NCBI RefSeq assembly: GCF_044324785.1
Contig: NZ_CP172127.1
Source of the DNA: Escherichia coli
GTDB taxonomy: Bacteria > Pseudomonadota > Gammaproteobacteria > Enterobacterales > Enterobacteriaceae
Direction: 5' to 3' (one strand)
Length of the DNA: 64,000 nucleotides
Part shown: piece by piece, positions 15,188 to 58,853 of the stretch
Layout of the letters: the number at the start of each line of letters is the position of its first letter
Numbering within the stretch: the stretch's first letter is position 1
Notes under the pieces: generated by a model
The model's database searches: none
What the model was told of the DNA's origin: nothing
What the model saw: only the letters and a program-made list of their open reading frames with translations
Made by a program: the position numbers and the translations under genes

Positions 15188-16501
<1,314 letters not shown>

Positions 16502-37403: not shown

Positions 37404-40250
37404 TCAGAAAGTCACATTCAGCGTGGCCTGACCGTTATAGCCTTCGGCGCTGCTGCCGCTGACGCTGTGGGCATAACCGGCCTGAACGCCCAGGGTGATA
37501 TTTTCCCGGACACGGGCTTCCAGTCCGGCCTGCAGGTCCAGTGACGTGCCATTCTGGGACGGTGAGAACGTCATGTTACTGCCGGCGGCGGCTGTCCCCA
37601 TGCTCATGTCACCCCGGGAACTGAAGGTGCGGATAACAGAAGGCTGTACCCACCAGTTCACCGGCAGTTCACGCACACGGTGTTTTGCACTGTCGCGCAG
37701 GGTGTCACGGGATGAGGTGCCTTCACCAAAGCTCATATCGTTGTGGCTGCCCAGACGGAAGCCGGCACGCATATGTTGTGCACTGCCATGCCCGAACTTC
37801 ACATAACCGGCGTTATCCTGGCCGTCATCCAGGGAAAGTCCCTGCCAGGTGTACTGCAGTTGTGGTTCCAGCATCAGGTTGTCAGTGATACTGAAGGGCA
37901 GACCGGTTTCCAGTGAGCCCAGCCAGCCCCAGCCCCGGGCGCGGAAGTCGTTATTGTCCGATGACGCTTTCATGCTGTGGCGGGTTCCCTGTGCCATAAT
38001 GTCAGCCCACAGGCCGGAGGACGTGTGTACCAGATTCAGGTATCCGCCCAGGCTGCCGGCATCATCCCGGACCGTGCCGGCGCGGGAGCCGTCATCATCC
38101 TTAACATCAACGGAAGAATGGCCAGCAGCACTATATACCCCCGCGGTCACAGACATACCGGCAACCTCTGTTCTCAGCAGGTCACTCTCCAGACGGACGA
38201 AGCCATAGCTGCCGCTGCTTTCCGGCGTGGCCCCACGGGCAATACCGCCGTTGTTATCGTGACCGAGATGACCGCCCTGAATGCTGAGACGGACGCTGTT
38301 ATTTTCACCGTTTACACCGGTCTGATGGCTGCGGGAGCCTGCCAGAATCCGGTCATAGTCCATTGCCTGTGTCAGCATGGAGGCATACAGGGGGACTTCA
38401 GCACGATAAGCATTTTCACTGCGCAGGTACCAGTCTTCATCGCTGTCACGGTTCAGGGTGTAGTTAAAGGCACCGGCCTGAAGCGGGCGACTCAGGGCAA
38501 ACGCACCTTCTTCTGTGGTGGCACCATTCTGTGCATCCACAACCCGGATACCCTGTCCGGAAGTTGCCACCCCGAGGTTACTGTTTCCGACATTTGTGAA
38601 CGCAAGCCAGGTTTTGCCGGTTGCCTGACCACCATTAATCACCAGCTGGTCAGAGGCATTGCTGCCATCAAGGCGAACACGCATATTGATGGTGCCACCC
38701 TGACCGGTGAGGTTACTGGTGGTCAGTTTATGGAACGTTACCGGGGCGTCGCCTTTTGCAACAGCACGGCTCAGGACGGCATCCTGTGTCGTCTGATTAT
38801 CAAAGCGAATCTCCCCTGCGTTAACAATATCGCCGGTACTGACCACATCACCATTCAGTACCATGCTGGCGCCTTTACTGAGCTGTGTTCTGCCACTCAG
38901 ACTTCCCCCGGCAGCCAGCGTCAGTGTTCCACGATGTCCGACAGTGGTGTTGCCAGCCTGTCCCCCGGCATTAACCGTAAAGCTGCCGCCATTTTCCAGC
39001 AGCAGGCCGCTGGCCTGACCGGATATGCCATCAATACTGAACTTACCGCTGGCATTGGTCCCCTCAACAGTGGCACCACTGTCTGCAATCAGGGCACCAC
39101 CGGATGTCATGGTGACACCTGTCGCCTTACCACCGGCAGACACTGCCAGGGTACCGCCGTCATCCACCCGTGTTTTCTGCGCTGAATGACCCTCCAGTAC
39201 ATCCAGACGACCGCCGGACTCCAGAACAACACCGTCAGCCTTACCGTTTTCCACCGCGAAATTGCCCAGACGGTTGCTGCCGGTGACGGTTGCCGCCGTA
39301 CTGGTGACCAGTGCGCCTCCCTGCTTCAGGGTGACATTCGTGGCTGTACCACCGGCGTTCACCTGCAGTTTGCCTTTCTGGTTAACGGTGGTGAAATCCG
39401 CCAGACCACCTTCCTTGATAATCTGCCAGCCGTCACTGTTCACAACAGTGTCAGACGTTGTACCGCCGTTGTGTACATACTGGTTACCGCCATTCAGCGT
39501 GGTATCCAGTGCGTGGCCATGTACCGTCTGGTCGCCGCCGGCATAAACCACAGTGGTATTTGCTGTTCCTTCAACAGTCACAATCTGACGACCATTTTTA
39601 TTGATGGTGGTACGTACGGCATTTCCGCGAACAAACTGCCCGGTATCACCATTTTCTGCATCCGGTCCTCCTTCTGCGCCGGTATTCACAACGGTGTCTG
39701 TTGCCACTGCGCCGGGTTTGACGACCTGCCAGCCCTTATCATTAATGACGGTTCCTGTGGCTATCGCACCTTCATGCATCCACTGCTCGCCACCATTCAG
39801 CGTGGTGTTCAGTGCCAGTCCCTTCAGGCTTTGTCCGCCTCCTTCATTGATTATTGTGTCTGTAGCCTTTCCCCCGGCACCTACAAACTGGAGCCCGCCG
39901 CTGCTGATGGTGGTATTACTGGCTGTGCCGCCATCCTGTACCCATTGCCCGCCGGTATTGGCCTCGTTATCCGTCCCATACTCCAGCCCGGTACTGATGG
40001 TCATTCCGTTGGTCGTACCGAAGACAATCTGGTTGTCATGATTTGTCAGTGTTCCGCCGTTCACGGTTTCTCCCGCCTCTACAACCGTGTCAGCAGCCAG
40101 TGCCGGGACTGGCGTGACAGCAGCAAGAGACAGCGCAACCGCCACACCGGCGCGTTTTCCCCGTGAGCGGGCCAGTTCGGAAGCCACCACCAGGGTGCCC
40201 GTAATGTGATTCCATACCAGCCTGTAGCTGGTGTTCAGATGTCGTTTCAT
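37404..40250 (-). CDS. flu: Antigen 43 (Ag43/Flu) self-associating autotransporter adhesin
   Basis: Start taken at MKRHLNTSYRLVWNHITGTLVVASE... (extended autotransporter signal peptide); Gly/Thr-rich beta-helix passenger; C-terminal beta-barrel ending ...GQATLNVTF. The ORF-track frame extends 25 codons further upstream. Confidence 0.9.
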   Translation of the reverse strand: MKRHLNTSYRLVWNHITGTLVVASELARSRGKRAGVAVALSLAAVTPVPALAADTVVEAGETVNGGTLTNHDNQIVFGTTNGMTISTGLEYGTDNEANTGGQWVQDGGTASNTTISSGGLQFVGAGGKATDTIINEGGGQSLKGLALNTTLNGGEQWMHEGAIATGTVINDKGWQVVKPGAVATDTVVNTGAEGGPDAENGDTGQFVRGNAVRTTINKNGRQIVTVEGTANTTVVYAGGDQTVHGHALDTTLNGGNQYVHNGGTTSDTVVNSDGWQIIKEGGLADFTTVNQKGKLQVNAGGTATNVTLKQGGALVTSTAATVTGSNRLGNFAVENGKADGVVLESGGRLDVLEGHSAQKTRVDDGGTLAVSAGGKATGVTMTSGGALIADSGATVEGTNASGKFSIDGISGQASGLLLENGGSFTVNAGGQAGNTTVGHRGTLTLAAGGSLSGRTQLSKGASMVLNGDVVSTGDIVNAGEIRFDNQTTQDAVLSRAVAKGDAPVTFHKLTTSNLTGQGGTINMRVRLDGSNASDQLVINGGQATGKTWLAFTNVGNSNLGVATSGQGIRVVDAQNGATTEEGAFALSRPLQAGAFNYTLNRDSDEDWYLRSENAYRAEVPLYASMLTQAMDYDRILAGSRSHQTGVNGENNSVRLSIQGGHLGHDNNGGIARGATPESSGSYGFVRLESDLLRTEVAGMSVTAGVYSAAGHSSVDVKDDDGSRAGTVRDDAGSLGGYLNLVHTSSGLWADIMAQGTRHSMKASSDNNDFRARGWGWLGSLETGLPFSITDNLMLEPQLQYTWQGLSLDDGQDNAGYVKFGHGSAQHMRAGFRLGSHNDMSFGEGTSSRDTLRDSAKHRVRELPVNWWVQPSVIRTFSSRGDMSMGTAAAGSNMTFSPSQNGTSLDLQAGLEARVRENITLGVQAGYAHSVSGSSAEGYNGQATLNVTF

Positions 40251-40459
40251 CAGCTTTTCCTTACAGAGGGTGAATAAAAAAGCCGGTACCCACAAATGTG
40301 GATACCGGCAGGTACAAAACAGCATGGTCAGATAAAGTGGTTTTTCCCGGACATAAATGCTTCCCCTCTCTCATCCGCCAGAGAAGTATCAGTCCGTTGT
40401 GTGCAATTCCGTTCTGCATGATGAAGAGATTCAGCTGCCTTTTCGCAGACCATTAACCA

Positions 40460-40510
40460 CCATAAACGATCGATGACAACGATCGATACCTGTTTTATCG
40501 ATCGTTTTAT
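40460..40510 (-). promoter_or_regulatory. Ag43 phase-variation switch: cluster of three GATC (Dam) sites in the flu upstream region (expected OxyR-binding region)
   Basis: GATC at 40468, 40481 and 40500 within ~35 bp, 210-260 bp upstream of the flu start. Confidence 0.6.
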
Positions 40511-40621
40511 TCTATTAACAGCAAGGCAGTCACGCAAGAGAAAGAGGTGGGTATGAGGTGTTTGTATCATGTTTTCAGTTGGTTAACGCAATGTAATCAG
40601 GCATTTCCCCTGGCAGAATGT

Positions 40622-41494
40622 TCAGAAGAAAATCCAGTTCCATACAGCGCGGGCAACAGAGACCACCGTGTCACGGACGACACGCAGAACCGTACGAGCC
40701 ACAGAGGCAACACAGACGCTCTCCGCCGTGTCAAATATCCGGTCCACCGCACCGGTAAACTGTTCACGGGCCTGCCCCCGGACAGATTCCGTGCACAGCT
40801 CGTCCTGCAGGCGGGTCATCAGGGGACTGGCGGCATGGTCGGGAAGTGCTGTCATGAGCGCACTGACCAGCGTATCCAGTTCCCAGCCGGTGCGGGCCGA
40901 TACGGCCACAACCGGATGTACGGGCCGGAACAGACGGAATACCGCCTCCGTTTTTTCGCGAATGTTCTGTGCCTGTGCGGGAGAAGGCTGAATACCGGCC
41001 ATATCCCATTCATGGCAGGGCTCCGTTTTATCGGCCTGCGTCACCACAAACAGCACCTGCTGATGTCCCCGGTGCAGGATGTGTCGCCAGAAATACTCAT
41101 CCACAGACAGGGCACGGTCATCGGCTTTAATCAGCCACAGTACCAGGTCAAGTTCAGGCAGAATGTCACGGTACAGGGCTTCATACTCTGCATCCCTGTC
41201 CCGGCTCTCGCCCACCCCGGGCAGGTCAGTGATAACCATGCTGTGACCGTGGCCACTCAGACGGAAGCGCCGCACTTCCCGGGTGCCGGCGTGAACATCA
41301 CTGACCGGGGTGACCTCCCCCTGAAACAGTGCATTACAGAGTGAGGATTTACCGGCCCCGCTTTTCCCCATAATGCCAATCACGGGTTCGTGACTGGTGA
41401 GTTTACGCAGATGTTCCAGGATGTGACGGGAAAGTGAGTAAGGCAGGGAAGAAAGTGGTTTTTCAATTGCCTCAATGGCATCAGACGGATTCAT
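40622..41494 (-). CDS. YeeP/YkfA-like GTPase (50S ribosome-binding GTPase family)
   Basis: P-loop GIMGKSGAGKSSLCNALF and DLPG G3-like motif; start taken at MNPSDAIEAI... Confidence 0.75.
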   Translation of the reverse strand: MNPSDAIEAIEKPLSSLPYSLSRHILEHLRKLTSHEPVIGIMGKSGAGKSSLCNALFQGEVTPVSDVHAGTREVRRFRLSGHGHSMVITDLPGVGESRDRDAEYEALYRDILPELDLVLWLIKADDRALSVDEYFWRHILHRGHQQVLFVVTQADKTEPCHEWDMAGIQPSPAQAQNIREKTEAVFRLFRPVHPVVAVSARTGWELDTLVSALMTALPDHAASPLMTRLQDELCTESVRGQAREQFTGAVDRIFDTAESVCVASVARTVLRVVRDTVVSVARAVWNWIFF

Positions 41495-41757
41495 ACATGT
41501 ATTCCCGGTGAAAAAAGACAAAACCCCGCGCACCGGAAAGGTGGCGGGGGATTCACGGAGATAATATCTGTCTGAAATTATTTAGAATGCACCTGGTGCA
41601 CTGCAAAGGAAAGGCAATATTCCGTTCCTCCTCCTTGTCGTGAATACCCCAGGTATCTCACAATGTACACCGACTTACTCCGGGGCTGCCTGAACCACAA
41701 GATTGCTGTAGAATTGCCCCCAATGATTCAGGTCCAAACCAGGAAAATGGATTAAAA

Positions 41758-43167
41758 ATGACAAGTATTCAACAACGAGCAGAACTGCACCGCCAGATAT
41801 GGCAAATTGCCAATGATGTCAGAGGTTCTGTTGACGGATGGGATTTTAAGCAATACGTTCTGGGCGCGCTTTTCTACCGTTTTATCAGCGAAAATTTTTC
41901 CAGCTATATTGAAGCCGGTGATGACAGTATCTGTTATGCGAAACTGGATGACAGCGTAATTACTGATGACATTAAAGACGATGCCATCAAAACTAAAGGC
42001 TACTTCATCTACCCAAGTCAGCTTTTCTGCAACGTAGCTGCGAAAGCAAATACCAATGACAGACTGAATGCAGATTTAAACAGTATCTTCGTTGCTATCG
42101 AAAGTTCTGCTTACGGTTACCCTTCAGAAGCTGACATCAAAGGTTTGTTTGCTGATTTCGATACCACCAGTAACCGCCTGGGTAACACCGTTAAGGATAA
42201 AAATGCCCGCCTGGCTGCGGTTCTGAAAGGGGTTGAAGGGTTAAAACTTGGTGACTTCAACGAACATCAGATTGACCTGTTCGGCGATGCCTATGAGTTC
42301 CTGATTTCTAACTATGCGGCGAATGCTGGTAAGTCAGGCGGCGAGTTTTTTACACCGCAGCATGTCTCTAAGCTGATTGCACAACTGGCTATGCACGGGC
42401 AGACCCACGTTAACAAAATCTACGACCCAGCCGCAGGTTCCGGTTCGCTGTTGTTACAGGCGAAAAAGCAGTTTGATGACCATATCATCGAAGAAGGCTT
42501 TTTTGGTCAGGAGATCAACCATACGACCTATAACCTGGCGCGTATGAACATGTTTTTGCACAACATCAACTACGACAAGTTTGATATCAAGCTGGGCAAT
42601 ACGCTGACTGAGCCGCACTTCAGAGATGAAAAACCGTTTGATGCCATCGTTTCTAACCCGCCGTATTCAGTGAAATGGATTGGCAGCGATGACCCGACGC
42701 TGATTAACGATGAGCGTTTTGCCCCGGCTGGCGTCCTGGCCCCCAAATCAAAAGCTGACTTCGCGTTTGTATTACATGCGCTGAACTATCTTTCGGCCAA
42801 AGGTCGCGCCGCGATTGTCTGCTTCCCGGGTATTTTTTACCGTGGCGGCGCAGAGCAGAAAATCCGTCAGTATCTGGTCGATAATAACTATGTCGAAACC
42901 GTGATTTCACTGGCACCGAACCTGTTCTTTGGCACCACCATTGCCGTAAACATTCTGGTGCTGTCTAAACATAAAACGGATACCAAAGTTCAGTTTATTG
43001 ACGCCAGCGAACTGTTCAAAAAAGAGACTAACAACAATATCCTGACCGATGCCCATATCGAACAGATTATGCAGGTATTTGCCAGCAAGGAAGATGTTGC
43101 TCATCTGGCGAAATCTGTTGCGTTTGAGACTGTTGTCGCGAATGACTATAACGGCTTTGTTGAATAA
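41758..43167 (+). pseudogene. hsdM: Type I restriction-modification methyltransferase subunit HsdM (IC/EcoR124-like), 3'-truncated by IS903; no hsdR or hsdS present
   Basis: N-terminus [47 protein letters not shown]; SAM-binding motif [10 protein letters not shown]; catalytic NPPY motif ([11 protein letters not shown]). The last 4 codons plus stop (GFVE*) are encoded by the IS903 terminal repeat starting at 43153. 469 aa versus ~520 expected. Confidence 0.75.
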
Positions 43168-44209
43168 ATCAGATTTCGGGTAAGTCTCCCCCGTAGCGGG
43201 TTGTGTTTTCAGGCAATACGCACGCTTTCAGGCATACCTGCTTTCGTCATTTTGTTCAGCGCTCGTACCAGGGCCATAGCCTCCGCAACCTGACCATCGT
43301 AGTCACGCAGCGTCAGTGAACCCCCGAACAGCTGTTTTACCCGGTACATCGCCGTTTCCGCTATCGAGCGACGGTTGTAATCTGTTGTCCATTTCCACCG
43401 CGCATTACTCCCGGTCATTCGCTGATTAGCCACTGCACGGTTACGGTCTGCATATTCACCGGGCCAGTAACCCGCACCTTTTCGGGGAGGGATAAGCGCG
43501 CTGATTTTCTTACGCCGCAGTTCATCGTGACATAGCCGGGTATCGTAAGCGCCATCGGCGGCGGCTGACCTGATTTTCCGGTGGGTTTGCCGGATTAACC
43601 CGGGGAAGGCCTCTGAGTCCGTAACGTTGTTCAGCGACAGGTCAGCGCAGATGATTTCATGTGTTTTACTGTCAACGGCGAGATGCAGCTTACGCCAGAT
43701 ACGGCGGCGTTCCTGGCCATGCTTTTTGACTTTCCACTCGCCTTCACCGAAGACCTTCAGCCCGGTGGAATCAATTACCAGGTGTGCGATTTCACCCCGG
43801 GTGGGCGTTTTGAAACTGACATTAACCGACTTTGCCCGCCTGCTGACACAGCTGTAATCCGGGCAGCGTAGCGGAACGTTCATCAGAGAAAAAATGGAAT
43901 CAATAAAGCCCTGCGCAGCCCGCAGGGTCAGCCTGAATACGCGTTTAATGACCAGCACAGTAGTGATGGCAAGGTCAGAATAGCGCTGAGGTCTGCCTCG
44001 TGAAGAAGGTGTTGCTGACTCATACCAGGCCTGAATAGCTTCATCATCCAGCCAGAAAGTTATGGAGCCACGGTTGATGAGGGCTTTATTGTAGGTGGGC
44101 CAGTTGGTGATTTTGAACTTTTGCTTTGCCACGGAACGGTCTGCGTTGTCGGGAAGATACGTGATCTGATCCTTCAACTCAGCAAAAGTTCGATTTATTC
44201 AACAAAGCC
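43153..44209 (-). mobile_element. IS903-like insertion sequence (IS5 family), 1057 bp, without target-site duplication
   Basis: 18-bp terminal inverted repeats GGCTTTGTTGAATAAATC at 43153-43170 and, inverted, at 44192-44209. Length equals IS903 as I recall it. The 9-bp flanks differ (gactataac vs gttacccgc). Confidence 0.85.
43209..44132 (-). CDS. IS903 transposase (DDE)
   Basis: GTG start at 44132 gives a 307-aa product (VAKQKFKITNWPTYNKALINRGSITFWLDDEAIQAWY...); the ORF-track frame extends to 44177. Confidence 0.85.
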   Translation of the reverse strand: MAKQKFKITNWPTYNKALINRGSITFWLDDEAIQAWYESATPSSRGRPQRYSDLAITTVLVIKRVFRLTLRAAQGFIDSIFSLMNVPLRCPDYSCVSRRAKSVNVSFKTPTRGEIAHLVIDSTGLKVFGEGEWKVKKHGQERRRIWRKLHLAVDSKTHEIICADLSLNNVTDSEAFPGLIRQTHRKIRSAAADGAYDTRLCHDELRRKKISALIPPRKGAGYWPGEYADRNRAVANQRMTGSNARWKWTTDYNRRSIAETAMYRVKQLFGGSLTLRDYDGQVAEAMALVRALNKMTKAGMPESVRIA

Positions 44210-45339
44210 GTTACCCGCTCTTCAATCTCATGCAATTGATTATGCAATATCGCATTTTCATCCTTTTGCCCGGCTAATGAGTGGGTAAGCGTCTCAACTT
44301 CTTGCTGTAATGCGGAGCTCCTGGCCTGGAAAAACTCAAGTTCCTTCAGAACCCGATCTTTAAGAGAGAATAGGTACTCTTCAGCTGACAGCGTGGTGAT
44401 CCTATGATGGGCGGCGGCGATAAATTCATCATAAAAATCATCACTCTTTGCATCCAGGGCAACAACAAACTCTTTCACTTGCTGATAAAACGGGTGAAAT
44501 GCCGGACCAGAAATCGTGTTTAAATGCCACTCAAGGAACACGACAACATAGTTTTTATAATCTCTGAGACGGTGTTCCATCATCCCCTGCTGACAGATAA
44601 ACGCTTTAAGCGCCACCAATGCTTCAACAGCACAGCGGTGCGACTCTGCTCGCGTGGCGGATAGGGATTCACTACGGTTGATGGTATGAGAAATTAACGT
44701 TTCATTTAAGACCGAAATTCTGTTCGCCATGAGCATAAATGCGCAGACGAAGAAAAGATCGTTGGTCGTCCTGATTTCCTGAAAGCGAAGCTGATGACTA
44801 GTAATAAATTGACGCCTGAGAAGCTTGTCCCATGGCCACCAGACAAAGGTGCGGAAAAAGTCAGAGGGAATATCCTGGGATGAAAAAAACTTGAGATCAG
44901 GTAACAGCTCCTGGCGCACTGACCACGGCATCGGAGCATAAACCTGCAAGGCGGGATCAAAAGACTGGCTGCGACAGATAACGACATCCGCTTGTATATC
45001 GCTAGCACGTGCGTACATGCGCTCCAACATCATGTTATCGACATAATCGTCGTCATCAAGAAAAATAACGTACTCACCGGTAGCAGCATCCAACCCGATG
45101 TTTCTTGAGCCTCCCCCACCAAGATTTGTCGTGTTGTTAATGACTCTAATTCGTGAATCAGTTTCAGCCAGCGCCGAGACAATCTCTAAGGTATTATCGT
45201 CAGAACAATCGTTGACAATAATGATTTCAATATCATTTAATGTTTGCGACAAAACAGTGCTCAATGTGTCGGAAATATATCCCGCCGCATTGTGCACAGG
45301 GATAATAACGGAAACAGCTATACTCTCTTTTTCAGACAT
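44179..45339 (-). CDS. Family-2 glycosyltransferase; C-terminus replaced by IS903-derived codons
   Basis: N-terminal GT-A fold (VIIPVHNAAGYISDTLSTVLSQTLNDIEIIIVNDCSDDNT ... FLDDDD). The last 9 codons and the stop lie inside the IS903 right inverted repeat (IS boundary 44209). Confidence 0.7.
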   Translation of the reverse strand: MSEKESIAVSVIIPVHNAAGYISDTLSTVLSQTLNDIEIIIVNDCSDDNTLEIVSALAETDSRIRVINNTTNLGGGGSRNIGLDAATGEYVIFLDDDDYVDNMMLERMYARASDIQADVVICRSQSFDPALQVYAPMPWSVRQELLPDLKFFSSQDIPSDFFRTFVWWPWDKLLRRQFITSHQLRFQEIRTTNDLFFVCAFMLMANRISVLNETLISHTINRSESLSATRAESHRCAVEALVALKAFICQQGMMEHRLRDYKNYVVVFLEWHLNTISGPAFHPFYQQVKEFVVALDAKSDDFYDEFIAAAHHRITTLSAEEYLFSLKDRVLKELEFFQARSSALQQEVETLTHSLAGQKDENAILHNQLHEIEERVTALLNKSNFC

Positions 45340-45460
45340 GCAATCACCTTGACGCTTAGCTTATAAACGTAATTATATTTATTTATGGGTAGCGTTTAAT
45401 TTGTAGGTTGCCAGTTTATTAAGGATGGGTAAGATGAAAGCGACTGAGCTTCATCAAAAA

Positions 45461-46606
45461 TTACTCTTCAACAACATCACGATATGTTTTTAATGTTTTA
45501 TTAATGATCATCACACTCGAGAATTTATCTTGAATGCGTTTTCTGCCATTGATACCCATTGCGACGCGCGTTTCTGGGTTATCCAACAGGAAACCGAGTT
45601 TCTCCGCTAATTCCTCGACAGATTTACTTTTTACAATCAACCCATTATAGTTATTGATAATTAAGCTATCACAGCCACCAACATCATAAGCGATACAAGC
45701 GCGCCCGACAGAGGAAGCTTCCAGCAAGATACGCGGTACGCCTTCGGCGTAGACCGACGGCAAAGCAACGATATTTGATTCTTCAATTAAATCAAATACA
45801 TTAGAGCAATGACCGAGCCAGTTAATCACGCCTTCGCTTTGCCACTTCTGTATCGTCGCCAGCGGAATTGCGTCTTTATCATTCTCAACTAAAATACCGG
45901 CAACATTCAGCGTAAAGTGAATATTTTTATTACTCAGTATTTTTTTGGCTTCAATCAGGTCACCCAGTCCTTTACTCCACAGCATACGGCTGGCAAAAAG
46001 GACGACCGGAACATCACGCTGCTGCTCCAGAGAGTATTTGTAAATCTCTGGATTAATACCCGCGCCATCAATAACAATAGTCTGTTTGTAATCGATACCA
46101 ACCAGATCGGCAAGTTTAGCTCTGTCTTTATCATGTTCGAACATAAACAAACTGCATTTGTTACTGGCGATATACTTATATGCCATAACAGTAAAACTTC
46201 GCAGCAGCTTAAGACAGGCAGACTCTGCGGAAAATACTCGGCCCAAACCGACAAAACTCAGAATAACAGGACGATGGGTACTTTTAGCCAGAAAACCGCC
46301 GATCAAACAGGGCTTGATGGTAATGCAGTGCAACAAATCTGGATTGATGTTTTGAATAATTTTCCGAGCCTTAGAAAAGGCCCGAAAGAAAATCAAAACG
46401 TTGAATGATTGGGCGACAAGTGGAATGTTATGGCAAACAAAACCTAATGTCCTGAATTTTTCCGCTATTTTATCATCGACAAAATGGCTAATAATGTGAA
46501 TCTCATAACCGGCATCTCGGGCGGCAATTGCACGATCGGTCCAATGCAAATCAAAATACCAATCCGAATTTATGAAATAACACAGTTTTTTCATTGCTAT
46601 GTCCAC
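45461..46606 (-). CDS. wbbO: GT4-family glycosyltransferase, WbbO-like (galactosyltransferase of D-galactan I pathway)
   Basis: 381 aa; GT-B C-terminal signature EGVPRILLEASSVGRACIAYDVGG; position matches the last gene of the Klebsiella wzm-wzt-wbbM-glf-wbbN-wbbO order. Confidence 0.75.
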   Translation of the reverse strand: MDIAMKKLCYFINSDWYFDLHWTDRAIAARDAGYEIHIISHFVDDKIAEKFRTLGFVCHNIPLVAQSFNVLIFFRAFSKARKIIQNINPDLLHCITIKPCLIGGFLAKSTHRPVILSFVGLGRVFSAESACLKLLRSFTVMAYKYIASNKCSLFMFEHDKDRAKLADLVGIDYKQTIVIDGAGINPEIYKYSLEQQRDVPVVLFASRMLWSKGLGDLIEAKKILSNKNIHFTLNVAGILVENDKDAIPLATIQKWQSEGVINWLGHCSNVFDLIEESNIVALPSVYAEGVPRILLEASSVGRACIAYDVGGCDSLIINNYNGLIVKSKSVEELAEKLGFLLDNPETRVAMGINGRKRIQDKFSSVMIINKTLKTYRDVVEE

Positions 46607-48666
<2,060 letters not shown>

Positions 48667-50559
48667 TTAGCCAAGAATCGAACGGCGAACTTTATAATAA
48701 TATTTGATGAGCTTATTTCTTCTTGGCGAACCGACAGGAGCATATTTGTTAACATATGGCATTAAAGCTCTTTTAATCTTTGTCTGCAGTAACACGGTTT
48801 GCTGCAGTTCAGTATGTTGGTTAGGTACTACCGTGGCCACAGGTAACTGGCGATAGTAGATTTCTTTCTCCCATGGCGTACTTAAAACATTCTCAAGAAA
48901 ATCATCATAGAAATCGACTTTCTCAGTATTCCATGGTTTGTTTTCACCCGCATAGTGAATCATTTTTGGATTTCTTCTGGCTTGCAAAAAGCGCATATAG
49001 GTTGAAAACTTGAGATTCGGGAAGAAATCATCGGTATTACCATTACCATGGTACACGTTCCATTCTAATGGTAAGAATTTGACTCGGCCAAAGAAGACTT
49101 TGTTCATGATATCCTGATCTAAGAACCAATACTTTTTGGCTTTCAATGCTGACATCAATTGAGCAAAGGTATTCTCTGTAACCATTTGTTCGACATTAAA
49201 AACAATAATCCCGGCCTGAAAATATTCGTCAGGATTAGTCATTCCTAATGTCTTTTTCAGGTATTGCTCTGCAGGCATAATGCCATCATCTGATTCTGAC
49301 ATGGTACCAAACTTCACAAACCCTTCCATGACGATGTCTTTAACAGCGGCAACCAGGTTAGTGCCGATCTCGACATCCAGAAGTGTCGCCAAATCAGCCT
49401 TCACCACGGTGTCAGAATCGATAAACACAACTTTTTTATACTCGCGGAAAAGTTGCGGGATGAACAAGCGCGCATAGGTCGACGCACTAAAATGTGCACG
49501 GGTATGAACATCACTCATCTCAGTGAATGAATTCACATCAAAAAAGCGCAATGATATGTTGTTATGACCAGCAACTAGCTTGATAAGGCGTTGTTTATTT
49601 AAATGACTGACCTTATTTTCCAGAACAACGATATCATAGTTTCTGCTCGCATCAGAATGGAGAACAATTGAATTGATTAATGCCCCGCCACTTAATGCAT
49701 AGTTATTATCAAAACTAATAACAACCGGTACGCTTTCGTCAAAAACGGGCTTTAATTTACCATTAAATGTTTCAGCAGTAACAAACGTGCGCTGTAGTTC
49801 TTTTATTTTTAGCTGTTTATCTTGTTGACATTTGATGATATAGATATTGAATAAACGCTCAGCAATGTGTCCTATAACTCGTTTTTCTTGAGCGTTGTAG
49901 TTATTCATCGAAATCCGATCTTCAAGATTAGACAAAATAGCAAAAAGCCATTCAGAATAATCCAGGAACATGTCTTTGCGCATAACAAACATGTTCGTAT
50001 AATAACCATCAGTTGCATTATTGAATTGTTGAATCGCAGCTTTATATTGTGGATACAGCTCTTCAACGACATCCAGGGCAGACTGATAGTCTTTAATGTG
50101 TAAAAACTCACCTTTTGCATAATGATCAAGGTTATTCTTACTTCCTGCCGATGTTACCGACCATTTTTTGGGTAACAGCAGATCATATCCATCGACGCAG
50201 GTGCTTATGGATTCATCACTTAATCCAAACTGGCTTTCGTATTCGGCATTGATGAGCGGGTAGTTGACTACCCCCCAGTTATCCTCAGGATGATTTTGTT
50301 GTTCTGCAAAGTTCAAGTGTCTGCGGTAATGCATGAATCCCACATAGTCAGCCAGAGATTCATTCTTCCACACCCAGTAGTGGGCCGTCAGCTCACAATA
50401 GAAGGGGTTTTTAAAGGAAATGTTGTCTCCGCTATCATCCCCTTCACAGCCAATATCATTATAAGTATTAGCCTTCCCGACATGCAGTGGTTTAATAATA
50501 GAGGCATTTAGAAAAGCACTGGGTTTGTGGTGACATGTATAAATTTTGATACTATTCAT
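48667..50559 (-). CDS. wbbM: WbbM-like bifunctional glycosyltransferase (N-terminal DUF4422-like domain + C-terminal GT8 domain)
   Basis: 630 aa; C-terminal GT8-like region (VVISFDNNYA...FIDSDTVV). Size and position match Klebsiella WbbM. Confidence 0.8.
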   Translation of the reverse strand: MNSIKIYTCHHKPSAFLNASIIKPLHVGKANTYNDIGCEGDDSGDNISFKNPFYCELTAHYWVWKNESLADYVGFMHYRRHLNFAEQQNHPEDNWGVVNYPLINAEYESQFGLSDESISTCVDGYDLLLPKKWSVTSAGSKNNLDHYAKGEFLHIKDYQSALDVVEELYPQYKAAIQQFNNATDGYYTNMFVMRKDMFLDYSEWLFAILSNLEDRISMNNYNAQEKRVIGHIAERLFNIYIIKCQQDKQLKIKELQRTFVTAETFNGKLKPVFDESVPVVISFDNNYALSGGALINSIVLHSDASRNYDIVVLENKVSHLNKQRLIKLVAGHNNISLRFFDVNSFTEMSDVHTRAHFSASTYARLFIPQLFREYKKVVFIDSDTVVKADLATLLDVEIGTNLVAAVKDIVMEGFVKFGTMSESDDGIMPAEQYLKKTLGMTNPDEYFQAGIIVFNVEQMVTENTFAQLMSALKAKKYWFLDQDIMNKVFFGRVKFLPLEWNVYHGNGNTDDFFPNLKFSTYMRFLQARRNPKMIHYAGENKPWNTEKVDFYDDFLENVLSTPWEKEIYYRQLPVATVVPNQHTELQQTVLLQTKIKRALMPYVNKYAPVGSPRRNKLIKYYYKVRRSILG

Positions 50560-50573
50560 CTTATTACCAATTA

Positions 50574-51314
50574 TTAAGCCATTGCTTGCTTGTAAAGTTC
50601 AATGATTCTCTCTGCTGAGCCAATTTCGCGGAGTTTATGGTTTTCGATCCAAACAACTCTGTCACAGATTTTTTCAACATCACTCATATTGTGGCTAACG
50701 AATAATATCGTTACACCCTTATTTTTGAAGTCTCGTATTGTTTGTATACATTTGGCCTGGAACGAAATGTCACCGACAGCAAGTACCTCATCGATAATAA
50801 GTATATCGGGTTCTACCTGGCTGATGACAGAGAATCCAAGCTTCGCAAGCATACCACTTGAGTACACGCGAATAGGTTCGTCAATGAAATCACCCAGCTC
50901 GGAGAACTCAATTATCCGATCCATCCGTTGCTGAACCTCTTTGCGGCGTAGCCCAAGCAGGGTCGCATTGAGATAAATATTTTCTCGCCCGGTTAATTCA
51001 GGGTGAAAACCGCCGCCTAGCTCAAGCATTGAGGCAACGCGTCCCTGGGTTGTAACAGTGCCTTTTGTAGGCTTAATGACGCCGGCCACCAGCCCGAGGG
51101 AGGTACTTTTCCCTGCGCCGTTACGACCAATCAGCGCTACGGCCTCGCCTTTACCCACGGTGAAGGTAATGTCTTCGATCGCAAGATATTTACGCCCTTT
51201 TAACAGCTGAAAAGCTCTTTTAGGGTGAAATACGAGATCCTTAATTCCTGAGCCAATATGGTGGTAAAGAGGATACTCTTTCGTAACGTGACTAAAGTTT
51301 ATTACTGGTTCCAT
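50574..51314 (-). CDS. wzt: O-polysaccharide ABC transporter ATP-binding protein Wzt (short form, no carbohydrate-binding extension)
   Basis: 246 aa; Walker A GRNGAGKST, signature YSSGMLAKL, Walker B ILIIDE. Confidence 0.9.
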   Translation of the reverse strand: MEPVINFSHVTKEYPLYHHIGSGIKDLVFHPKRAFQLLKGRKYLAIEDITFTVGKGEAVALIGRNGAGKSTSLGLVAGVIKPTKGTVTTQGRVASMLELGGGFHPELTGRENIYLNATLLGLRRKEVQQRMDRIIEFSELGDFIDEPIRVYSSGMLAKLGFSVISQVEPDILIIDEVLAVGDISFQAKCIQTIRDFKNKGVTILFVSHNMSDVEKICDRVVWIENHKLREIGSAERIIELYKQAMA

Positions 51315-52093
51315 TACAAAATCTCTGCAAATCGATATTTTAATTTATTAAAAATACTCAGGCCCACAATTGTCAGGACTAAACCTGTAATGTAAAGGAT
51401 TGAAATATATTCATAATTTAAGACGCCATCCATGAACAGCTGCCGCCAGCTGAGGATCATGCTTGCCAGAGGATTATAGGTAATAATCCAGCTAAATTTT
51501 TCAGGAATCATATCTGACGCATATAATATCGGCGTGCAATAAAACATGAGCATGATACCAAGGCTGACAAATCGCTCTAAATCCCTGAAGAACAGATTTA
51601 GCGTAGAAAATATGATTGAAATACCAAATGTAAAAATCACCTGACCAAGCGCAATAATTGGTACGCCCCAGAGCCATGAGAGCGATGGACGCATACCATA
51701 CACGAACAGGAATGCAATAATCACAGGAATTGTACACAAGAAATGTACCCCTTCCATCATGACATTACTCAATGGAATAACTGAGCGCGGAAAAACTGTT
51801 TTTTTGATTATTTGCGCATTGGCTATAAACGAAAACAAGGAATTTGTCGCCGAGCTGGCAAACCATTGCCACGGAAATAAACCGGTAATCAAGAAAAGGG
51901 TATAATTCGGGATCTGCACTCGCATAACGAGCTTAAAAATGAAATAATATATCATTGCAAAAAGCAGTGGATTCGCAATTGACCATAAGTAACCAAATAC
52001 GCTGCTTTTATAACGTACCTTTAAATCTTTGTTTGTTATAACAACAAGAAGATCAAACAAATACCCTATATTATACTTCATTTTTATACTCAT
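51314..52093 (-). CDS. wzm: O-polysaccharide ABC transporter permease Wzm
   Basis: 259 aa; six-TM ABC-2-type permease; stop overlaps the wzt start. Confidence 0.9.
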   Translation of the reverse strand: MSIKMKYNIGYLFDLLVVITNKDLKVRYKSSVFGYLWSIANPLLFAMIYYFIFKLVMRVQIPNYTLFLITGLFPWQWFASSATNSLFSFIANAQIIKKTVFPRSVIPLSNVMMEGVHFLCTIPVIIAFLFVYGMRPSLSWLWGVPIIALGQVIFTFGISIIFSTLNLFFRDLERFVSLGIMLMFYCTPILYASDMIPEKFSWIITYNPLASMILSWRQLFMDGVLNYEYISILYITGLVLTIVGLSIFNKLKYRFAEIL

Positions 52094-52390
52094 AAATTAT
52101 TCTACAAAAAATTCCGTACGTAATATGTATCAAACAGAATTATCGATAAGATCTGCTGTGCTCGAGAGACGAACAGCTATTCCCATAAACAAAGACCAAT
52201 TGTAACATCATTTTGCACAAGCAATATGTAAACAATCTTTCCTGCGCATTAGCACTCCGGAATCGGAGATGATCGCTAACCTCAGTAACCGCTGAATGAA
52301 AATGTGATTCTCGTGGAAGATACATAAACCATCCTTTAAGATTGTAAATAAAATGTTAAATCGAACAATGAGTTTATTCTAAAATTCAGA

Positions 52391-52402
52391 CACGCTACCG
52401 CC
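52391..52402 (-). promoter_or_regulatory. ops element (RfaH recruitment site, part of a JUMPstart) in the leader of the wzm operon
   Basis: Plus strand reads cacgctaccgcc; its reverse complement is the exact ops sequence GGCGGTAGCGTG, on the operon strand about 300 bp upstream of wzm. Confidence 0.7.
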
Positions 52403-53051
52403 ATTGGCTATCGCAACCAAAATGCGGACTCCCCTCTCTAAAGTGTCTGTCTTACCCGGTCTTACCGTAACGAAGAGGATACGCTCGTCGTTAGCTCCAC
52501 AAGCATTACCGGCGCAGCATTCATGAAGCCACAAACAGCCTAGTCAGCGTTCGGCAAAAAAGCTAAAAACAAACGGATATCTGTACTCAGCGCCCCTCTC
52601 CGGACTCACATCCATCGCTACACCGCAACAAATGCACCGCTACTTTCCCCAGTTTATGGCATCCTATCCATCAGGACTTTCTCATTTCACCCTTGAAACC
52701 AACAAAAAGCGTCACTCTCGGCAGTATGACTTCAACAGCCATGTAGCTGGGCGCTCCGCATCTCTACATGAGTCAGGCAGAGTATTAAGTTCGCGGGCAG
52801 GCAGCGGCAACACCACCAGGATAACGTACTTCCTCATCCTATCTTGCATAAAAGTGAATTTGACTTTTCTTCAAAAGTGGTCAAATCCGAGCGTCGTAGG
52901 GTACGTTTGCTGCGCATTATCAATAATGCATCCGTAGGACGTGAATTACGCGCGCATTATAGCTCTGGTCTGGAAGAATAAAAATGAAAAAGCATGACCA
53001 ATCCATCCAGCCAAAAAATACTGAAGTGGTCAACAAAAACTGGCCACCGAG

Positions 53052-53640: not shown

Positions 53641-55366
53641 GTGGTTCTTCCGCAACTTGGGTGGAAGAAAATGGATGAAACTTTCTGGTGAACAAGGATC
53701 TAAGCTGTTTTAAGTTATGGGCAACGCAATGCACTCTCTTAAGACACTTCTACAGTTACCTTGCGGATGGCGATGCAGTCGACAAATTATTAGCTCTGAC
53801 GGTATCACCCTCCATCTCCACGGAAAACGCAAAACAGCACAATGTCCTGAATGCTCTAAGCGTAGCGACTCTGTTCATAGTTCTCGTCGGCGCCGGATAC
53901 AGCATCTACCCTGCTCCGGGCAGACGCTATGGCTTGTATTTTCCGTCCGCCACTGGTACTGCCGTAACCCTGTTTGTTCACGAAAAATTTTTGCCGAGTC
54001 GCTTGCTCCCTTCGCCGGTTCACACCAGCAGTCTTCACAGGCGTTACAAAATTTACAACGTCAACTGGGATTAATAGCCGGAGGTGAGGCTGGAAAACGG
54101 GCTGCAACGGCAGTGGGTCTCCGTTGCAGTGCAGATACTCTTCTTCGCAGGGTTATCAATACCCCGGGGACGAAACAGTCAGGCGCGCCTCATGTCGGTA
54201 TTGATGAGTGGGCGTGGCATCGGGGCCACCGTTACGGTAAGTTAATCGTCAATCTTGATACTCACCGTCCCCTCGTCCTGCTTCCCGGTCGTGATCAGCG
54301 TACGCTGGCGACCTGGTTCAGAAAATATCCGGAAATACAGGTTGTCTCGCGTGATCGCAGTGGAGTCTATGCAACAGCAGCACGTGAAGGTGCACCTCAG
54401 GCCAGACAGGTGGCCGATCGATGGCACCTGCTAAAAAATATTGGCGATGCGCTTGAACGAATGATGTACAGACATATACCTCTGATACGTCTTGTTGCCA
54501 GTGAGTTGTCACTAAAGAAATCACCTGAGCCAGAACTGTCTGTGCCTGCAGTATCGCTCCGTCGTCCGGAACGCCTTAAACAGCAAACCCGCAAAAAACG
54601 GCATCAGCGTTGGACAGAGGTTATGGCCCTGCATAACAAGGGATGTAGTTTCAGGGAAATATCCCGTATTACAGGCCTGTCGCGTGTGACAGTCAGTCGC
54701 TGGGTGCGTTCAGGAACATTCCCTGAAATGTCAACCCGACCTCCAAAGCGAGGGCTTCTGGACCCATGGAGGGAGTGGTTAAAAGAGCAACGAGAAAGCG
54801 GTAATTATAACGCCAGCCGGATATGGCGGGAAATGGTGGCCCGGGGGTTTACAGGCAGTGAAACCATCGTCAGGGATGCTGTTGCCAAATGGCGTAAAGG
54901 CTGGATCCCACCGGTTACTACTGCCGCCAGACTTCCTTCAGTGTCCCGGGTAAGCCGGTGGTTGATGCCCTGGAGAATAATCAGGGGGGAAGAAAATTAT
55001 GCTTCCCGATTTATTAGTCTGATGTGTGAAAAAGAACCGGAGCTGAAAATAGCGCAGCAACTGGTACTCGAGTTCTACCGTATTCTGAAAACCCAAAATA
55101 AATCACAGCTTAGCAGCTGGTTCACTCGAGTCCACGAAAGCGGCTCAGCAGAACTTCGGCGCGTGGCTGCGGGGATGGAAGCTGATGCTGCGGCTATATG
55201 TGAGGCAATCAGCAGTCGCTGGAGTAATGGTGTTGTCGAAGGTCATGTAAATCGCCTGAAGATGTTGAAACGCCAGATGTATGGTCGAGCCGGATTTGAA
55301 CTGCTCAGGCAGAGGGTCATGAGTCCACTGGCATGAAAATCTCCACCCAAGTTGCGGAAGAACCAC
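53641..55366 (+). mobile_element. ISL3-family insertion sequence nested inside the IS66-like orfA
   Basis: 25-bp perfect terminal inverted repeats GTGGTTCTTCCGCAACTTGGGTGGA at 53641-53665 and, inverted, at 55342-55366; encloses a single transposase gene. Confidence 0.75.
53717..55336 (+). CDS. ISL3-family transposase
   Basis: 539 aa; N-terminal zinc-finger-like region (CGWRC...CPEC); ISL3-like architecture. The second Met at 53729 is an alternative start. Confidence 0.8.
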   Translation: MGNAMHSLKTLLQLPCGWRCSRQIISSDGITLHLHGKRKTAQCPECSKRSDSVHSSRRRRIQHLPCSGQTLWLVFSVRHWYCRNPVCSRKIFAESLAPFAGSHQQSSQALQNLQRQLGLIAGGEAGKRAATAVGLRCSADTLLRRVINTPGTKQSGAPHVGIDEWAWHRGHRYGKLIVNLDTHRPLVLLPGRDQRTLATWFRKYPEIQVVSRDRSGVYATAAREGAPQARQVADRWHLLKNIGDALERMMYRHIPLIRLVASELSLKKSPEPELSVPAVSLRRPERLKQQTRKKRHQRWTEVMALHNKGCSFREISRITGLSRVTVSRWVRSGTFPEMSTRPPKRGLLDPWREWLKEQRESGNYNASRIWREMVARGFTGSETIVRDAVAKWRKGWIPPVTTAARLPSVSRVSRWLMPWRIIRGEENYASRFISLMCEKEPELKIAQQLVLEFYRILKTQNKSQLSSWFTRVHESGSAELRRVAAGMEADAAAICEAISSRWSNGVVEGHVNRLKMLKRQMYGRAGFELLRQRVMSPLA

Positions 55367-55695: not shown

Positions 55696-56057
55696 TAAAT
55701 CTTCCCGCAGGCACAAAAATCTGGCTGGTTGCCGGTATCACCGATATGCGCAACGGCTTCAATGGTCTCGCCGCAAAGGTGCAGACAGCGTTGAAAGATG
55801 ACCCGATGTCCGGCCACGTCTTCATCTTCCGGGGCCGCAGCGGCAGTCAGGTCAAACTGCTGTGGTCCACCGGCGACGGACTGTGCCTGCTGACCAAAAG
55901 GCTGGAGCGTGGCCGCTTCGCCTGGCCGTCGACCCGCGATGGCAAAGTGTTCCTGATGCCGGCGCAGCTGGCGATGCTGATGGAAGGTATCGACTGGCGA
56001 CAGCCAAAGCGGTTACTGACGTCCCTGACATGTTGTAGCCCAGGTCTTCTTCGTTGA
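55692..56057 (+). CDS. IS66-family accessory protein TnpB (OrfB)
   Basis: MINLPAGTKIWLVAGITDMRNGFNGLAAKVQTALKDDPMSGHVFIFRGRSGSQVKLLWSTGDGLCLLTKRLERGRFAWP matches the IS66 OrfB family as I recall it. Confidence 0.8.
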   Translation: MINLPAGTKIWLVAGITDMRNGFNGLAAKVQTALKDDPMSGHVFIFRGRSGSQVKLLWSTGDGLCLLTKRLERGRFAWPSTRDGKVFLMPAQLAMLMEGIDWRQPKRLLTSLTCCSPGLLR

Positions 56058-56877
56058 TAAAGTTCACATCCAGAGGATGGATACTTCCTGTAGCCCGTAA
56101 TATCGTCGATTCAATATCCTGCACATTCATCGGGATCACCGATGCAAGAAAAGCCCATTGATCAGAATAAGGCTGGAAATTAATATCAACAAAAACGCTT
56201 CCCCCCGATGCACGCGGTCTTTTTTGCAGAGGTAACGCGATAAGATTACCAAATCCTCCTTTTGGCATAGTATCCTGATTAGGAAATAATCGGTCATAAG
56301 AACTCAATTGCAGCTGTCGGGTCCGGCTGCACGTATAGCTAATAATAGCAGTCCCCAGACGGCGAGCTTCGCGGGCCGAAACTCGTGAAGCAAAAAATAT
56401 CCAGACATGCGCTCCCTGACGTGAGCGGGATATTTCCAGCGCAGCAGGTACACTCAGCTCATCACAGGCTCGCATGAACGCGGATGCATCCTTCTGCCAT
56501 TCAGCTTTATCAAAATCAACAGCCAGAAAATAACAGGAATCATCTTCCAGCAACGGATATAACCCGGCAGTATGCGTGCCTGCCAGATGCTGGTAGATGA
56601 CAAGATCAGATACAGGGAGTAACTGACGGTGCGTACAGTCCCCGCATTTTATCCGGGGTTTACCGCATATTCTCGCCTGCCATTCGTTAGCGCAGGCAGG
56701 AGAGTACCCTGATTTGCCGCTGGTTTTACTTTCCCAACGAAGGGCCCATATATCATCACGCCCACGAAACAACCGACGAAATAATGCAACCTTCTCGTCG
56801 GTGGATAATACGGAAACGCGCTGCACAGGGCTCGGCGGTTTACGTCGCCATTCCAAGTAATGAGACCAGACGGGCAT
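56058..56877 (-). pseudogene. Primase-like protein (archaeo-eukaryotic primase / prim-pol type N-terminal domain), 3'-truncated at the IS66 boundary
   Basis: Motifs LAVDFD (DxD) and RQGAHVWIFF (H-containing motif). The reading frame continues into antisense IS66 orfB sequence (to 55852), so the native C-terminus, where a helicase domain would be expected, is missing. Confidence 0.5.
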
Positions 56878-57080
56878 TTTCTGCCCTCAATGCAGCTAAT
56901 TCATCGCTGTCAGATTTATGAACCATATTCGTTACCTGTATCCGATCCACTGAGGCACCACGGCAGAAATTCGGGTCCCCTACACTGATGACAAAGCGCC
57001 CCGCCCTCTTCTGCCTATTAACTCAAGCACCTCCCAACAACTTACAGAAACTTAATTCTAATACCTAATACAGCTGTAAT

Positions 57081-57644
57081 TCAGTTGTGTCGTGGTCGGC
57101 CCCGGTTACTTTTTTCGGGAAGCCTGCTACGGCCCAGAATAATACCGTGTTCTTTCTGATCCTGTTTAGCCAGGTAGCTGAGGGCGTAACGTAAGTCGTC
57201 TACTGCGGACTTATCACTATAGTGAATCACGTGATCGATACGCACCGGGTATTTATCTTTAGCCCGGCACAGATGAAAATAACCCTCCCCTTCCGTGATC
57301 CGCCTCCAGATATCCCCCAGTTGCCTGGATATCTGATAAGAGTTCTTGTGACGTTGCCCATCCAGATAGCCGATAAAATGAATATGAAGCCCTTTGTCTG
57401 GTGTATATTCCATAACCCAGTAATATCCTGCCAACATCGTCTGGGTTTCGCTAAGTAAACGGTATATTTCCATACACATACTGTGCTTACAGGAATGCCC
57501 GAAACTGGGCGTGTCTTTCCTGTAGGCAAAATCAATTCTGAAAGGTAACAGTTTAGAAAAACGTTGAAACAATCCCTCCATGTGTTCATTCACATCTTTC
57601 AGAATCGCGAAATTCATTTCGTAATTGGGATTGGCATTATACAT
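57081..57644 (-). CDS. Inovirus Gp2-family protein (YfjJ/YagK-like), typical of CP4-57/P4-like elements
   Basis: 187 aa; resembles the YfjJ family recalled from CP4-57. Confidence 0.65.
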   Translation of the reverse strand: MYNANPNYEMNFAILKDVNEHMEGLFQRFSKLLPFRIDFAYRKDTPSFGHSCKHSMCMEIYRLLSETQTMLAGYYWVMEYTPDKGLHIHFIGYLDGQRHKNSYQISRQLGDIWRRITEGEGYFHLCRAKDKYPVRIDHVIHYSDKSAVDDLRYALSYLAKQDQKEHGIILGRSRLPEKSNRGRPRHN

Positions 57645-58811: not shown

Positions 58812-58853
58812 GGATATACAAACATCGGATGCCAAAAACACGTTCCGATAATA

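Follow-up and report, generated by a model that had tools for sequence, protein, structure and literature searches.

The stretch of Escherichia coli DNA analysed here (64,000 nucleotides of contig NZ_CP172127.1, referred to as the window) carries, inside a genomic island at the tRNA gene serW, a cluster of genes of the kind that specifies the O-antigen polysaccharide D-galactan I in Klebsiella. Judging by sequence, the block that holds this cluster is a piece of a Raoultella O-antigen locus, Klebsiella-like in kind and Raoultella in origin. The reading that we favour, and hold to be likely, is that an O2a-type rfb operon of Raoultella ornithinolytica, excised by insertion sequence (IS) activity, spread by plasmids and deposited at serW, would give this strain uncapped galactan I as a second O polysaccharide. 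It is built on the observed gene identities, the origin and boundaries of the block, an adjoining deletion and the distribution of the cluster among genomes, which are described below in that order.

The gene cluster and its Klebsiella counterparts

A preliminary description of this DNA had pointed out a wzm-wzt-wbbM-glf-wbbN-wbbO arrangement with one extra GT2 gene, and this observation is confirmed here, as seven collinear genes at 44179-52093 that run from wzm to a kfoC-like gene. The sizes and order that it gave for the open reading frames (ORFs) agree with the ORF list, where all seven are on the minus strand, and its remark on AT-richness agrees with the GC content of the block at 44210-53021, 0.417 versus 0.519 in the core genes at 12-31 kb. 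The cluster had also been described as bounded by ISs, and indeed a complete IS903B lies on its left and IS3-family, ISL3 and IS66 remnants on its right. The extent proposed at that time (44179-52402) holds for the cluster itself and falls short at the upstream limit, the foreign block actually reaching 53021; the position at which that extent ended, 52402, coincides with base 1 of an exact ops 12-mer. The features of the cluster and its immediate borders are the following.

51314-52093, minus strand: wzm, ATP-binding cassette (ABC) transporter permease, 259 aa (ABC-2 permease matches)
50574-51314, minus strand: wzt, ABC-transporter ATPase, 246 aa (nucleotide-binding domain only)
48667-50559, minus strand: wbbM, predicted dual-module D-galactan I polymerase, 630 aa (Pfam DUF4422 and GT8)
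47494-48648, minus strand: glf, UDP-galactopyranose mutase supplying UDP-galactofuranose (UDP-Galf), 384 aa (TIGR00031 match)
46607-47497, minus strand: wbbN, GT2-like galactofuranosyltransferase, 296 aa (role by homology, PMC11294581)
45461-46606, minus strand: wbbO, GT4 galactosyltransferase acting on undecaprenyl-diphosphate-linked N-acetylglucosamine (Und-PP-GlcNAc), 381 aa (GT4 matches; role by homology, PMC11294581)
44179-45339, minus strand: kfoC-like GT2 glycosyltransferase, truncated, 386 aa (tblastn, Pfam GT2)
52094-53021, minus strand: native Raoultella leader upstream of wzm (the alignment to R. ornithinolytica extends to 53021)
52391-52427, minus strand: JUMPstart with the ops 12-mer GGCGGTAGCGTG, RfaH loading site (exact ops match)
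43153-44209, minus strand: IS903B, complete, 1057 bp (inverted repeats; IS5-family transposase)

We have used the his-linked rfb locus of CP125156.1 as the Klebsiella pneumoniae reference, with protein comparison by tblastn. The homology search that the preliminary description had proposed as a check confirmed genuine homology to the rfb proteins of K. pneumoniae O1/O2, with the order conserved. All seven genes are collinear with this locus, at 72.6% nucleotide identity, and the identities of the individual proteins are 91.9% for Wzm (RfbA), 94.7% for Wzt (RfbB), about 77% for WbbM (wbbM is frameshifted in that strain), 85.4% for Glf, 64.6% for WbbN, 78.7% for WbbO and 53.9% for KfoC. The reference record has its own peculiarities: it is a K. 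pneumoniae chromosome of 5.37 Mb filed as 'plasmid unnamed2', and its frameshifted wbbM appears as two tblastn segments with no annotated coding sequence.

The polymerase had been called WbbM-like, a name borne out by its domain structure, with DUF4422 (GT111) at residues 5-243 (E 1e-70) followed by GT8 at residues 279-545 (E 1e-43), and by a gapless identity of 78.8% over 575 residues to the crystallised WbbM of K. pneumoniae (PDB 6U4B). Glf scores 321.1 bits with the TIGR00031 equivalog model (cut-off 303.75), is 84.9% identical to K. pneumoniae Glf (PDB 2BI7) and is nearer to this protein (775 bits) than to the Glf of E. coli K-12 (1I8T, 282 bits). Wzt is the short form without a carbohydrate-binding domain. 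The short Wzt, the dual-module WbbM, Glf, WbbN/WbbO and the gene order are all those of an O2a (D-galactan I) rfb cluster. The position is different: such clusters lie between cps/ugd and hisI, and this one is found 12.6 kb from serW inside the island, a displacement that is a feature of context rather than function. Two NCBIfam galactan-export models, NF050109 (56 versus 380 bits) and NF050108 (184 versus 400 bits), were tried and remained far under their cut-offs. They are named RfbD/RfbE, names that suggest a mycobacterial galactan exporter, and because the models are presumably mycobacterial these low scores are uninformative on membership in the Klebsiella type.

The seventh gene had been taken for one extra GT2 gene. 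It is instead a 3'-truncated homologue of kfoC, a regular member of the native loci. Codons 1-377 (44210-45339) are native and the last nine are read from IS903B, the gene, which encodes 434 aa at full length in Raoultella, being cut at codon 377. Over these 377 aa the protein is 98.9% identical to that of R. ornithinolytica (tblastn). Full-length KfoC has a Pfam GT2 domain at residues 10-140 and a coiled-coil-like C-terminal region at residues 316-431. In the Klebsiella O1/O2 locus kfoC is likewise a regular member, with no assigned function, and the genes from wzm to wbbO make up the mandatory set for D-galactan I (PMC7556023). All six of the latter are full length in the window and, since the mandatory set is described as running from wzm to wbbO, the truncation of kfoC should not block synthesis.

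Closest relatives and boundaries of the block

A scan for WbbM in one genome per species gave the best matches in R. ornithinolytica NBRC 105727 (99%) and Raoultella planticola ATCC 33531 (98%), followed by Klebsiella michiganensis and Klebsiella grimontii (81-83%) and by many other Enterobacterales (58-77%). Along 44210-53021 (8,812 bp) nucleotide identity is 99.3% to R. ornithinolytica and 95.2% to R. planticola, and all seven proteins are 98.9-100% identical to those of R. ornithinolytica (Wzt 100%, WbbO 99.7%, Wzm 99.6%, WbbM 99.4%, WbbN 99.3%). In Raoultella the cluster occupies the canonical position, between manC-manB-ugd-(epimerase) and hisIE-hisF. The search for a donor lineage, which the preliminary description had recommended, points to Raoultella rather than Klebsiella because of the difference between 99.3% and 72.6% nucleotide identity. 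The earlier label of a Klebsiella-type D-galactan I cluster therefore stands for the kind of cluster (homology and gene order) and fails for the immediate source, for which R. ornithinolytica is the match. K. pneumoniae as the direct donor was ruled out by the same pair of identities.

The Raoultella-like DNA ends exactly at IS903B on one side (44209/44210) and at an IS3-family terminus on the other (53021/53022). IS903B has inverted repeats (GGCTTTGTTGAATAAATC) at each end and an IS5-family transposase (NF033579, 357 bits), and is the element annotated as IS903B in E. coli SMS-3-5. It lacks a target-site duplication and cuts both hsdM and the kfoC-like gene. The right flank from 53022 consists of an IS3-family remnant, followed by an ISL3 transposase and then by IS66 tnpB; the sequence starting at 53022 is TGAAGTGG..., and an IS3-family/DDE remnant is annotated there in SMS-3-5. 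The ISL3 family transposase ORF of this flank (53717-55336, 539 aa) matches the ISL3 model from end to end, residues 303-394 match the N terminus of an IS21 transposase, and the protein may be chimeric or insertion-bearing.

Copies of the block on plasmids

The same block is present at 99.5-99.8% identity on plasmids of Enterobacter roggenkampii (IncFIB/FII), Enterobacter asburiae, Enterobacter kobei, Citrobacter freundii, Citrobacter portucalensis and E. coli. The ends of each copy adjoin an IS and differ from copy to copy, as seen when the extents are expressed in the coordinates of the Raoultella locus.

7539-16350: E. coli chromosome
7299-16488: two plasmids
8066-17955: IncF plasmid

Over the 8.3 kb that they share, the mobile copies differ from each other at 10-39 positions and from the Raoultella type strain at 43-68, the window having 14-39 differences to the three plasmid copies compared. 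This pattern is compatible with a single capture event, of 10.7 kb or more, after which the copies spread and were trimmed by ISs; independent captures from some closer donor are also conceivable. The companion genes vary as well, the IncF plasmid having wbbY-wbbZ and an acyltransferase gene and other plasmids gtrA/gtrB/gtrC-like (gml-type) genes. A circular record of 11,675 bp from Enterobacter asburiae (NZ_CP083838.1) has hardly anything in it besides the rfb cluster, IS1 and gtrA/gtrB-like genes. No replication gene is annotated, and rather than a true plasmid it may represent an excised circle or a fragment of an assembly.

The serW island and the loss of wbbYZ

Two further features of the window delimit the setting of the cluster on the left.

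31490-31577, plus strand: serW, tRNA-Ser(GGA), probable integration site (ARAGORN)
41758-43152, plus strand: hsdM, type I restriction-modification gene, 3'-truncated (TIGR00497, 616 bits)

The tRNA-Ser(GGA) gene is the sole tRNA gene in the window and was identified as serW because it comes directly after cydD-cydC-aat-infA. The annotation of SMS-3-5 gives cydD-cydC-aat-infA-tRNA-Ser at identical coordinates. The island probably starts at the 3' end of this tRNA, in agreement with the location that the preliminary description had given for the cluster, at serW and not at galF-gnd-his. On the other side an integrase ORF (62831-63985) extends to the window end. A 14-nt repeat of the serW 3' end was found in SMS-3-5 only, immediately beyond the integrase, where the window has already ended (E 0.04, from a search of small size). 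By these marks the island would be about 32.6 kb long in this genome and would end about 200 bp past the window. As to hsdM, no hsdS or hsdR is found nearby in either the window or SMS-3-5, leaving an orphan methylase remnant in the island.

We have counted the distribution of the cluster among 5,426 complete E. coli genomes. The whole cluster is present in 52, nearly all of them at 100% identity, and the serW arrangement over 25 kb is common to 35 of these 52. The window aligns to SMS-3-5 at 99.98% in 33164-43152 and at 100% in 43153-64000, and 8,985 bp that SMS-3-5 has between these two aligned pieces are gone from the window. This piece extends from within hsdM to the terminus of IS903B, with no target duplication, the alignment breaking at 43152/43153, and from these junctions we read its loss as a probable IS903B-adjacent deletion. 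Its content in SMS-3-5 is the 3' end of hsdM, IS1, a 740-aa glycosyltransferase, a 269-aa pyruvyl transferase and several IS copies. The genes of the two transferases are divergent, with a spacer of 97 bp, and are EcSMS35_2255 and 2256, which have been described as wbbY/wbbZ homologues 99% identical to those of K. pneumoniae (Hsieh 2014, PMC4237132). WbbY is the polymerase of galactan II and WbbZ a terminal pyruvyltransferase (PMC10629545).

Within the 64-kb window no homologues of wbbYZ, gml or the acyltransferase gene were detected, apart from a weak GT2-domain match. The divergent wbbY and wbbZ pair that characterizes Klebsiella O1 (galactan II) is accordingly missing from it, and the GtrA-like and GtrB-like proteins of the plasmid copies, used to look for the gtrA/gtrB/gtrC-like trio next to rfb that goes with side-chain modification in O2afg/O2aeh (gmlABC/gmlABD), have no match there either; wbbYZ could be elsewhere in this strain's genome. 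This strain is not alone in having lost wbbYZ, since the pair is found in 35-38 E. coli genomes versus 52 with the full rfb cluster. The exact hsdM-IS903B-kfoC junction has no single-piece match in the complete E. coli genomes, and those that come nearest to it have other IS1 or IS903B arrangements; the genome of the window is therefore not part of that collection.

The leader and a possible second O-antigen locus

The ops 12-mer (52391-52402, minus strand) is exact and precedes wzm by 298 nt, and the JUMPstart around it scores 25.6 bits with Rfam RF01707 (E 0.039, under the gathering score). The leader has thus the ops 12-mer within JUMPstart that marks an RfaH-dependent operon, and a 42-nt JUMPstart stretch of about 95% identity is found in about 250 other E. 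coli genomes. The action of RfaH at ops is established for JUMPstart operons.

The place of the cluster apart from the canonical O-antigen locus, proposed in the preliminary description, is sustained by SMS-3-5, which has the identical cluster and a separate Wzx/Wzy-type cluster in its galF-gnd interval. The latter contains three glycosyltransferases, wzy and a 392-aa wzx ORF, with an IS1A at its end. In the RefSeq annotation this wzx (NC_010498.1, 1049057-1050235) is given as a pseudogene and a hypothetical protein, but the DNA is one uninterrupted ORF of 392 aa and the split is probably an annotation artefact. The possibility of a dead native O-antigen locus in SMS-3-5 was rejected for this reason, the flagged wzx being intact. 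The O19 reference cluster is listed with the wzx/wzy types, outside the eleven wzm/wzt types (PMC4732683). According to Kelly 2023 (PMC10629545), a serotype-specific rfb at his-gnd accompanies these genes in most E. coli isolates, which may co-express two O antigens; this is suggested there to account for an old serological cross-reaction, that of E. coli O19 antiserum with Klebsiella O1.

Proposed pathway and alternative readings

In the scheme that we propose, the Raoultella O2a-type rfb operon would have been excised from the ugd-his O-antigen locus by way of IS activity, would have spread on enterobacterial plasmids and would have been placed inside a putative P4-type island at serW in an E. 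coli lineage that includes SMS-3-5. What we predict beyond this concerns the expression of the operon, the structure of its product and the co-display of two O antigens. Host WecA would prime undecaprenyl phosphate with GlcNAc-1-P to give Und-PP-GlcNAc, to which WbbO and WbbN would add galactopyranose (Galp) and galactofuranose (Galf), yielding the primer Galf-Galp-GlcNAc-PP-Und. WbbM would then polymerise ->3)-beta-D-Galf-(1->3)-alpha-D-Galp-(1-> with UDP-Galf from Glf, Wzm/Wzt would export the galactan chain and host WaaL would ligate it to the lipid A-core. Transcription would depend on RfaH at the retained JUMPstart/ops, and the galactan would be displayed beside, or would compete with, the product of the galF-gnd locus. 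The roles of WecA, WbbO, WbbN and WbbM have been described, as has a non-rfb ABC-dependent O-polysaccharide locus that is functional in E. coli K-12 (PMC11294581). Because wbbY-wbbZ is deleted, the predicted product is uncapped D-galactan I (O2a-type), not O1-type; for SMS-3-5 the prediction from its genes is an O1-like product, galactan I+II.

Several observations weigh against a working second O antigen of this kind. A promoter and terminator scan of 43.9-53.3 kb gave counts no higher than those of shuffled sequence, two of the plasmids have 240 bp more of the leader than the window retains and, with the leader cut at 53021, the native promoter may be missing. The cluster has near-100% identity among the 52 genomes, because of which its intactness may reflect recent arrival, not selection. 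The truncation of kfoC and the deletion of wbbYZ are also consistent with a decaying locus, WbbN (64.6%) and KfoC (53.9%) are well diverged from K. pneumoniae, and the galF-gnd-his region of this strain is outside the window. Much of this would be expected if the cluster were a silent passenger, a recent arrival on an IS-rich mosaic island that is poorly transcribed (because its promoter was lost or because AT-rich DNA is silenced), is being eroded by ISs and contributes nothing to the cell surface. IS903B does cut kfoC, the adjacent deletion of 8,985 bp took wbbYZ, other E. coli genomes have further deletions into the cluster (78-91% coverage) and different IS903B junctions, the promoter signal is not above chance, and 100% identity among genomes leaves little time for purifying selection to show. 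We nevertheless consider a silent cluster unlikely: the six required ORFs are full length and ops/JUMPstart has been kept, the block is maintained in 52 genomes, of many hosts, as well as on several plasmids, and D-Gal II has been seen on the lipopolysaccharide of a wbbYZ-carrying E. coli of type O19 (PMC4237132), the galactan II polymer being one that is added onto a galactan I (O2a) acceptor (PMC10629545).

The divergence of WbbN and KfoC from their K. pneumoniae counterparts, together with the GT2 domain and coiled-coil-like tail of a KfoC with no assigned function, might alternatively indicate a Raoultella-specific variant in place of D-galactan I, with KfoC modifying or terminating chains. 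This is quite improbable in our opinion, given that WbbM, the polymerase that sets the repeat, is 77-79% identical and has the same two modules, that even the distant Salmonella homologues of WbbN/WbbO complement Klebsiella mutants (PMC11294581), that the E. coli copies were called complete rfb(O2a) clusters by Kelly 2023 (PMC10629545), and that kfoC is truncated in the window anyway. We give slightly less credit still to the view that the island cluster is the only working O-antigen locus of the strain, galF-gnd being defective and galactan replacing the native antigen. The pseudogene mark that RefSeq puts on the SMS-3-5 wzx, the IS1A at the end of that cluster and the finding of serotype-specific rfb genes at his-gnd in most, but not all, such isolates (Kelly 2023) speak for it; on the other hand, that wzx is an uninterrupted ORF of 392 aa, wzy and the three glycosyltransferase genes are annotated free of defects, and the galF-gnd region of this strain lies outside the window, so that there is no sign of a defect in it.

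The comparison with SMS-3-5 allows a more tentative proposal, one that we regard as possible but somewhat doubtful. Within a single E. coli lineage, IS903B-adjacent deletions may toggle the O antigen of the island between the O1-type (SMS-3-5; galactan I and II with a pyruvate cap) and the O2a-type (this strain). IS activity would then be a serotype-switching device acting on a horizontally acquired, plasmid-circulating Raoultella O-antigen module.

Relation to earlier work and significance

The phenomenon is already known (Hsieh 2014; Kelly 2023), and the genome of SMS-3-5 contains the identical cluster. In E. coli, rfb(O2a) clusters that are complete and lie near wbbYZ have been described from plasmids and from chromosomal sites that vary (Kelly 2023, PMC10629545), and D-Gal II immunoreactivity was detected in an E. 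coli O19 strain (Hsieh 2014, PMC4237132). Our results are refinements of this picture: the R. ornithinolytica origin of the rfb block, its nested and differently trimmed IS-cut ends, and the loss of wbbYZ in this strain, none of which was found in the literature examined. Literature searches pairing serW with galactan, or Escherichia coli O19 with galactan, retrieved nothing relevant to those pairings.

Galactans I and II are the leading targets of Klebsiella O-antigen vaccines and antibodies. Carriers of the module among E. coli, Enterobacter and Citrobacter could cross-react with Klebsiella O-antigen reagents, and the module could confuse gene-based O typing, which reads the galF-gnd locus only. 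It could also alter the susceptibility of its carriers to phages or serum.

Other features of the window

A block of low GC (0.31-0.35) is found on the minus strand at 259-6397, a position at which SMS-3-5 has ycaM-pflA-pflB-focA instead. It includes genes for an EAL/GGDEF phosphodiesterase-like protein (3800-6148), a GGDEF diguanylate cyclase (2464-3795) and a BcsA-like cellulose synthase catalytic subunit (259-2379; 1014 bits versus a cut-off of 992), and an exact ops core (GGCGGTAG) stands ahead of it at 6390-6397. The block resembles another acquired module for polysaccharide synthesis, one controlled by cyclic di-GMP. Nearby, at 7248-8870 on the minus strand, an APC-family permease ORF of 540 aa takes the place of the 476-aa ycaM of SMS-3-5; bordering the low-GC insertion, it may represent a ycaM that was recombined or that gained an N-terminal extension. 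At the opposite end of the window, beside the P4-type integrase, 55852-60677 holds what is left of a defence or phage-satellite-like module. Its genes are a TOTE conflict-system primase-domain gene with a frameshift, one of the inovirus Gp2 type and, within DNA of low GC (0.36), one for a hypothetical protein of 607 aa.

Comparison with known systems

Among polysaccharide loci of other genera, the T1 locus of Salmonella (STM0719-0726) resembles the island cluster as a second, non-rfb, ABC-transporter-dependent O polysaccharide, with WecA, WbbO- and WbbN-type primers, Glf, Wzm/Wzt and ligation by WaaL (PMC11294581). It has features of its own in a GlfT2-like Galf polymerase, ribofuranosyltransferases and a FimB-like recombinase that inverts its promoter, whereas the polymerase in the window is WbbM and the region upstream of wzm holds only IS-derived ORFs, unlike T1; the ORF lists for 52.1-53.7 kb show no recombinase gene, an invertible switch not having been searched for. 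The rfb locus of K. pneumoniae O1/O2 variant 1 has the same seven genes in the same order, the same WbbM architecture, a short Wzt and Glf, but protein identities to it are 54-95%, its genomic site is another one and kfoC is truncated in the window.

The rfb locus of R. ornithinolytica NBRC 105727 has the seven genes in the same order behind the same leader with ops/JUMPstart, and differs in its full-length 434-aa kfoC, its downstream acyltransferase-like ORF and its ugd-his site; the window copy is cut by ISs at both ends and sits in the serW island. The plasmid copies carry a near-identical cluster, but with other IS-cut ends and other companion genes. The serW island of E. coli SMS-3-5 (O19:H34) has a 100% identical cluster, and IS903B and the IS remnants on the right are common to it and the window. 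The two genomes differ in the insertion near ycaM and in the 8,985 bp with wbbY-wbbZ that SMS-3-5 keeps, by which it is predicted to be O1-type and the strain of the window O2a-type.

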